Of a stretch of DNA of 335 nucleotides, positions 1 through 335 are shown one piece after another; the first letter of the stretch is position 1, and every line of letters begins with the position of its first letter. The DNA lies in the NCBI RefSeq assembly GCF_003334335.1, contig NZ_QOWQ01000216.1, one strand, 5' to 3'. Source of the stretch: Escherichia coli. Lineage in GTDB: Bacteria > Pseudomonadota > Gammaproteobacteria > Enterobacterales > Enterobacteriaceae. The notes beneath the pieces are model-generated. The model was not told the origin of the DNA, did no database searches, and saw only the letters and a list, made by a program, of their open reading frames with translations. The position numbers and the translations under genes are program-made.

Positions 1-37
1 CACCTTTTACCGGCTCCAGGGGATTTGGTGTTGCCAT
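1..37 (-). CDS. V: Major tail tube protein, lambda gpV family; 5' end only (first 12 codons), continues beyond position 1
   Basis: ATG at 37..35 (minus strand) followed by an open frame to the window edge, encoding MATPNPLEPVKG. This resembles the recalled lambda gpV N-terminus (MPVPNPTMPVKG...). It sits immediately downstream of the U stop on the same strand, matching the lambda gene order U-V, and is preceded by a Shine-Dalgarno. Only 12 codons are visible, so the call rests on the N-terminal match plus synteny. Confidence 0.75.
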   Translation of the reverse strand, partial: MATPNPLEPVKG

Positions 38-41
38 ATCG

Positions 42-46
42 TCCTC
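42..46 (-). promoter_or_regulatory. Shine-Dalgarno (GAGGA) for the V-like gene, overlapping the U stop codon
   Basis: Minus-strand sequence reads ...GAG ATG TGAGGACGAT ATG GCA...: the GAGGA motif overlaps the TGA stop of U (47..45) and lies 4 nt upstream of the V ATG (37..35). The spacer is on the short side but acceptable. The arrangement is consistent with translational coupling in a phage late operon. Confidence 0.5.
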
Positions 47-335
47 ACATCTCGTATGTAATGGAATAAGTCAGATCCGCAGAGCTCCATAACGCCATAT
101 CGTCATCACGATGATACTCATAGCCCTGCGTAACCATCGTGGTAATCAGTCCTGCCAGTGCCGGGATCGCAGTCATCGCCGGATAAATCCGGCTTTCCAT
201 CCACTGATCGAGCTCCGAATCAGGTACCTGTGCCGGTAAAAACACCTCAATATGCAGTGTGGCCCGCCAGGTATCTGCATCCAGCTCTTCACCGGTATAC
301 TCTGCATCCGTCAGATAAACCGCGATCGCAGGAAA
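45..335 (-). CDS. U: Tail terminator protein, lambda gpU family (minor tail protein U); partial, N-terminus lies beyond position 335; stop codon TGA at 47..45
   Basis: The minus-strand reading frame is open from the window edge (335) to the TGA at 47..45, 96 codons. Translation: FPAIAVYLTDAEYTGEELDADTWRATLHIEVFLPAQVPDSELDQWMESRIYPAMTAIPALAGLITTMVTQGYEYHRDDDMALWSSADLTYSITYEM. This aligns along its full length with the C-terminal ~96 residues of phage lambda gpU as I recall them (blocks such as AVYLT.AEYTGEELD, LHIEVFLPAQVPDSELD.WMESRIYP, LWSSADLTY.ITYEM), at roughly 80% identity. Lambda gpU is about 131 aa, so about 35 N-terminal codons are outside the window. The GTG at 245..243 that the ORF track translates as Met is an internal Val codon. 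Confidence 0.9.
   Translation of the reverse strand, partial: FPAIAVYLTDAEYTGEELDADTWRATLHIEVFLPAQVPDSELDQWMESRIYPAMTAIPALAGLITTMVTQGYEYHRDDDMALWSSADLTYSITYEM

Follow-up and report, generated by a model that had tools for sequence, protein, structure and literature searches.

The 16-nt imperfect direct repeat at the junction of the tail genes U and V is, with a probability that we place at roughly 0.85, the by-product of two separately constrained sequences that converge by chance. It is neither the trace of a duplication nor a start site, and it has served as a substrate for deletion. No function has been demonstrated for it, and viewed as a functional element it does not constitute a real feature.

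Genomic setting of the repeat

The window, that is, the whole 335-nt stretch of Escherichia coli DNA analysed here, comprises the 3' part of the tail terminator gene U and the start of the major tail gene V, both on the minus strand (Table 1). At 100% identity, it corresponds to positions 34314-34648 of Escherichia phage PhiR5_1 (PV340545.1), where U and V are annotated in the matching segment within the gene order Z-U-V-G-T-H, and related copies occur at ~3,500 places in 1,779 of the 5,426 complete E. coli genomes. By family profile, U belongs to the Phage_tail_U / lambda gpU tail terminators: the full-length protein matches Pfam PF06141 over residues 1-129 (E=2e-61), PHROG 37 'tail terminator' (E=3.5e-63), and the lambda gpU structures PDB 1z1z, 3fzb, and 3fz2 (about E=5e-68). 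According to the annotation of the identical phage PhiR5_1, the synteny around U is also of the lambda type, with Z upstream and V-G-T-H downstream. The NCBIfam search returned no family for U or V. Elsewhere in PhiR5_1 (L100), a HipA toxin / 'HipD antitoxin' pair is annotated at 7915-9488, between kil and cI in the immunity region.

Table 1. Features of the window and of the deletion allele (positions are those of the 335-nt window).
Feature	Position	Strand	Basis or remark
V start (ATG 37..35, MATPNPLEPVKG...; first 12 codons in window)	1..37	-	Annotation; PHROG 41
Junction copy of the repeat, plus-strand GCCATATCGTCCTCAC	33..48	-	Coding strand GTGAGGACGATATGGC
Shine-Dalgarno sequence GAGGA of V, overlapping the U stop codon	42..46	-	Anti-SD duplex predicted at -5.9 kcal/mol
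Segment missing in the deletion allele (one repeat unit plus intervening sequence)	44..104	-	Exact placement can shift by up to 11 nt inside the identical block GACGATATGGC
U, 3' part (last 96 codons plus TGA stop 47..45)	45..335	-	Gene runs past the window edge; annotation, Pfam, PHROG, structures
Internal copy of the repeat, plus-strand GCCATATCGTCATCAC	94..109	-	Coding strand GTGATGACGATATGGC, inside U
In-frame internal ATG, Met115 of U	96..98	-	Hydrophobic protein position, not a start codon; no SD pairing

The first-pass annotation had described a 15/16 match between positions 33-48 and 94-109, 61 bp apart, and had assigned the U stop, the Shine-Dalgarno (SD) sequence, and the V start to one copy and R-D-D-D-M-A to the other; the repeat, with its start-to-start spacing of 61 nt, was confirmed, and the assignment is correct. 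The match does not extend past either end, identity breaking off abruptly on both sides. Read on the coding strand, the junction copy GTGAGGACGATATGGC consists of the last base of U codon 131, the TGA stop, the SD sequence, a 4-nt spacer, the V ATG, and GC. The gap between the U stop and the V ATG is 7 nt, and GTGAGGA is kept across most of the gpU family. The internal copy GTGATGACGATATGGC spans the U codons cGT GAT GAC GAT ATG GCg, i.e., R111 D112 D113 D114 M115 A116.

Neither an Rfam search of the window at E<=1 nor a scan of it for promoters and terminators returned anything, and nothing was found in support of reading the repeat as a hairpin or RNA element. The window also holds a perfect 10-nt inverted repeat, TTTTACCGGC/GCCGGTAAAA, at positions 5-14 and 232-241 (217 nt apart; V codons EPVK versus U codons FLPA), and a 10-nt palindrome, CAGGTACCTG, at 221-230 that is nearly repeated at 268-277; chance probably accounts for the inverted repeat and the palindrome alike.

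Similarity probably imposed by coding and translation signals

Under a naive null, the repeat is rare. Just 1 in 1,000 dinucleotide-preserving shuffles of the window contained a direct repeat of 16 nt or longer with no more than one mismatch, and 6 in 1,000 reached the local score of the observed repeat. The earlier estimate of an expected count well below 0.01 per window therefore stands for shuffled sequence (1-6/1,000), but not once coding is respected. In a codon-preserving null, the U and V proteins and the spacer were held fixed while synonymous codons were resampled according to the late-gene usage of the phage itself. Under these conditions, the two sites agreed at 12 or more of the 16 positions in every resampling; the share reaching 15 or more was 7.3% (1,500 trials), against 7.7% computed analytically, and 38 of 500 resampled windows contained a repeat of at least 16 nt, so that the significance suggested by the shuffles was gone. 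Given that the two sites come out this alike in 7.3% of synonymous resamplings and never fall below 12/16, their similarity stems from encoded content rather than from shared nucleotide ancestry, and there is none beyond the coding and regulatory constraints that would call for a duplication. As the repeat is rare under the naive null, we argue for coincidence from the constraints and not from raw probability. The naive shuffle p-value exaggerates significance within coding DNA, and a conserved protein motif next to a translation start signal can look like a duplication.

At the scale of a genome, ~0.2 pairs of such quality are expected after a 50-kb phage genome has been shuffled. PhiR5_1 itself has 11 direct-repeat pairs of 15/16 or better, 5 of which are origin iterons in gene O. 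Besides the U/V pair, pairs of at least 15/16 lie at positions 11681-11847, 46908, 46114, 48087, 44674, and 2155; they comprise the cluster of iterons in gene O, a tandemly repeated 18-nt unit of a hypothetical gene (45692-47263), and four orphan pairs.

The comparison of U-V junctions covered 17 phages and prophages of diverse kinds, 80 close-clade loci from IMG/VR, and 34 loci from other species. Residues R111, D112, and D113 of U are invariant across this set. Residue 115 is Met in most members and Leu, Ala, Tyr, or Phe in others. The Met had been thought possibly specific to the lineage of the window; instead, most of the family reads RDD[D/E/A]M, including N15, mEp237, phi80, Klebsiella phage Kp4865-4, and many enterobacterial prophages, and it is the Ala-Gly of lambda in the Met115 region that represents the minority state. 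Two short contigs assigned to other bacteria, from Amphritea pacifica (L110, 380 nt) and Algoriphagus lutimaris (L133, 288 nt), are 100% identical to phage lambda, which suggests contamination of those assemblies with lambda DNA, and a locus from a Collinsella MAG (L102) shares 98% identity with the E. coli prophage clade, pointing to a mis-binned contig.

Both sites are conserved for reasons of their own. The internal copy encodes the gpU-family motif R-D-D-D-M-A, with position 115 usually Met, and the junction copy is the U/V junction common to most of the family, ATG-TGA(stop)-GGA(SD)-4 nt-ATG-[G/C]C. These conserved features alone force ~10/16 matches in nearly any family member, with G-GA-GA (the Arg-Asp-Asp codons) followed by ATG-GC in U set against Met-stop-SD followed by ATG-[G/C]C at the junction. 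The remaining matches in the clade of the window are supplied by the codon choices CGT/GAC/GAT and the spacer CGAT. The single mismatch, T versus G, is likewise forced: G belongs to the SD core at the junction, and in U it would turn Asp112 into Glu.

Tail-gene mosaicism near the junction

Mosaic boundaries lie close to the repeat, as would be expected if it were a microhomology used, and perhaps maintained, for the exchange of tail-gene modules among lambdoid phages. Relative to L001, the identity of CP-1639 (L087) rises from ~40-67% to 87-100% ~20 nt before the U stop, that of the Stx1 phage (L083, Stx1_111698) rises from ~70-83% to 93-100% in mid-U, and 2015C-3107 and 98-3133 change V type at the junction. 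However, the observed boundaries coincide with neither copy of the repeat; furthermore, recombination between the copies, whether in one genome or across two, would be unequal and would yield a deletion or a duplication rather than a module swap, and deletion alone was observed. A role in module exchange is thus very unlikely. The recombination microhomology envisaged in the first-pass annotation holds in that the copies have recombined in nature, giving a 61-bp deletion, but not as a vehicle of tail-gene mosaicism. The U gene of CP-1639 is cut short at its 5' end by IS629.

A 61-bp deletion between the two copies

A 52-nt probe across the predicted exchange product, used at E<=1e-10, which excludes normal alleles, matched 3 places among the 5,426 E. 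coli genomes. They belong to 2 strains, OkiPb01678 and OkiPb01712, which originate from bovine faeces in Okinawa, and a 140-nt probe returned the same 3 places in the 2 genomes. Alignment of the deletion allele reveals an exact 61-bp gap flanked by the repeat (Table 1). The copy that is kept reads GTGAT followed directly by GACGATATGGC, which places the crossover within the 11-bp perfect block. Since 61 = 3x20+1, the deletion joins the U frame to the V frame. It takes away the 17 C-terminal residues of U along with the stop codon of this gene and the SD sequence of V, and leaves a clean open reading frame for a 364-aa fusion in which U residues 1-114 are in frame with full-length V. At the deletion loci, PGAP annotates gpU as a pseudogene without its C-terminus.

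Strain ES5, like four further genomes, has the undeleted parental allele, which is 99.9% identical. The ES5 allele carries both copies of the repeat, and its Z and V protein accessions are the same as those of the deletion allele. Thus, as expected of a substrate for short-direct-repeat deletion, a natural allele that lacks one copy and the intervening DNA exists alongside a parental allele with both. The prophage carrying the deletion was already defective, with ISEc12 inserted in gene T. The two deletion loci inspected are identical over 1,452 nt and therefore probably descend from one event, and the deletion represents one lineage among ~3,300 alleles. In NZ_AP042676.1 (OkiPb01712), the probes report two places, one of them at 3505342-3505393; the second could be a duplicated prophage or an independent event. 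The reciprocal 61-bp duplication product had no match in the 5,426 E. coli genomes, and the deletion-junction pattern gave 0 hits both in IMG/VR and in JGI metagenome contigs. We infer that the deletion arose by RecA-independent slippage or template switching and that the U'-V fusion is non-functional.

The two genomes stem from a single project and do not differ at this locus, which would fit an assembly artefact and a repeat without real consequence. Against such an artefact, which we consider highly improbable, the gap corresponds exactly to one repeat unit plus spacer with clean flanks, and the allele is present in two complete assemblies at 3 places, whereas typical long-read errors are indels of 1-2 nt.

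Independent histories of the two copies

The first-pass annotation had raised the possibility that U acquired a copy of the V initiation region through a small duplication or gene conversion, and the reverse direction can be considered as well. The rarity of a 15/16 match under shuffling would be in keeping with such an event, as would the standing of the window's match as the single top value among all 754 internal-by-junction pairs of the family and the mosaic character of the region, where recombination is active. The distribution of the two 16-mers nevertheless makes this origin extremely unlikely, since each of them occurs independently of the other in further phages. In N15 and mEp237, the internal 16-mer GCGATGACGATATGGC matches the junction of the window at 14/16, while their own junction is GTGAGGACCCTATGGC. 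Kp4865-4 and prophages of Trabulsiella and Klebsiella likewise combine a 14/16 internal form with junctions that differ. Conversely, CP-1639 has the exact junction and V start of the window behind a divergent U that reads RDDEFM (8/16). Either copy can thus be present where its putative donor is absent.

Nor are the two sites of one genome closer to each other than sites drawn from different genomes. Within single genomes, identity ranges continuously from 5 to 15 and averages 9.06 (34 distinct combinations), against a mean of 8.5 of 16 for internal/junction pairs that never co-occur (n=720), where random sequence would give 4; for GTGAGG-type junctions, the corresponding averages are 9.81 and 9.62. 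A change in one copy is not accompanied by its counterpart in the other: the four junction variants ...ATGTC, GGATGAT, ...ATGCC, and GGGCGAGATGAC are all found with the internal copy unchanged, hence there is no concerted evolution. The sharp ends of the identity and the fact that the protein sequence alone fixes at least 12/16 also speak against a copied tract. Taken together, independent histories and the lack of concerted change effectively rule out a duplication or gene-conversion footprint as the origin of the repeat, which we ascribe instead to the convergence of a conserved protein motif and a conserved junction.

The internal ATG of U

The first-pass annotation had also suggested a weak internal start within U that would give a 17-aa peptide (MALWSSADLTYSITYEM). 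The ATG is indeed in frame and located in a copy of a genuine initiation region, although it lies at 98..96 and not at 101..99, which is the Asp114 codon GAT. However, the sole mismatch of the repeat ruins the SD core (GAGG -> GATG), and the duplex with the anti-SD sequence at the 16S rRNA 3' end is predicted at +0.3 kcal/mol for Met115 versus -5.9 for V, so that SD pairing 5-10 nt upstream is lacking. The start codon is not conserved either, codon 115 being ATG, CTG, CTT, CTC, TTG, GCG, TAT, or TTT across the family. On predicted pairing and codon turnover, we reject the peptide, for which there is no support here, and regard initiation at Met115 as barely credible.

Other decay events at the junction

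Other deletions affect the same place. In L018 and L065 (2 of 81 IMG/VR loci, from the clade of the window), a 147-bp deletion at about 997-1006 has removed the V start, so that the U stop/SD (GTGAGG) now abuts V codon ~50 (GCGAGATGACGG), with microhomology of at most 2 nt. In the IMG/VR prophage L022, V is fully divergent after about codon 6 (from about 1020, the break falling between ATGGCAACACCAAATC and ACCGGCTTTTACC), which looks like a truncation or rearrangement.

When the 364-aa fusion was used as the query against 5.8 billion proteins, in a protein-level search able to detect in-frame fusions only, no full-length fusion of the window's clade was found, just fusions of other origin. In-frame U-V fusion ORFs that arose independently in other clades are P0006, P0048, P0066, P0076, and P0051 (loci L136-L139). 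The first, carried by an ENA metagenome contig, is of lambda type and results from the loss of 37 bp with 1-nt microhomology. P0048, P0066, and P0076 are frameshift-type fusions, of which P0048 goes back to three NCBI assemblies of ~4.98 Mb that may contain sequencing errors. In P0051, U residue ~124 is joined to V residue ~40.

As deletions without such a repeat occur at the same place, the repeat is, on present evidence, no special hotspot. It is highly unlikely that it is a recurrent deletion hotspot whose U'-V fusion is more than debris, e.g., a dominant-negative tail-assembly poison, which, if true, would be expressed from defective prophages and interfere with superinfecting lambdoid phages.

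Comparison with known systems

The closest reference for the junction is phage lambda itself. Lambda shares the gene order Z-U-V-G-T, the 7-nt distance from the U stop to the V ATG, and the conserved ATGTGAGGA, and it is 73.8% identical to the window in nucleotide sequence. It differs in reading RRDDDAG (GCGACGATGATGCGGG), as the first-pass annotation had correctly stated, and in having the spacer CGCT. Its two sites consequently agree at just 8/16, and there is no such repeat in lambda.

The iterons in gene O of PhiR5_1 were recovered by the same scan and resemble the U/V pair in being short direct repeats of at least 15/16 within a few hundred bases. Iterons are protein-binding sites. They differ from the U/V pair in having four or more copies at regular spacing, whereas the latter has just two copies, both explained by coding or translation signals, for which reason we rejected an iteron-like or protein-binding repeat.

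In E. coli, RecA-independent deletion between close direct repeats (under 200 bp) is a well-known type of event (PMC7145654). Compared with the known short-direct-repeat deletions of this species, the usable homology here is 11 perfect bp (16 with one mismatch), and the deletion was seen in one lineage, which makes the repeat no demonstrated hotspot. The elements are the same: two close copies, the loss of one copy together with the intervening DNA, and a parental allele that is still extant. The sole shown effect of the repeat is that of a rare deletion substrate during prophage decay, and in this it is an ordinary member of a well-known class, providing a documented example in which a direct repeat of 11-16 bp removed 61 bp and fused a tail terminator gene to a tail tube gene.
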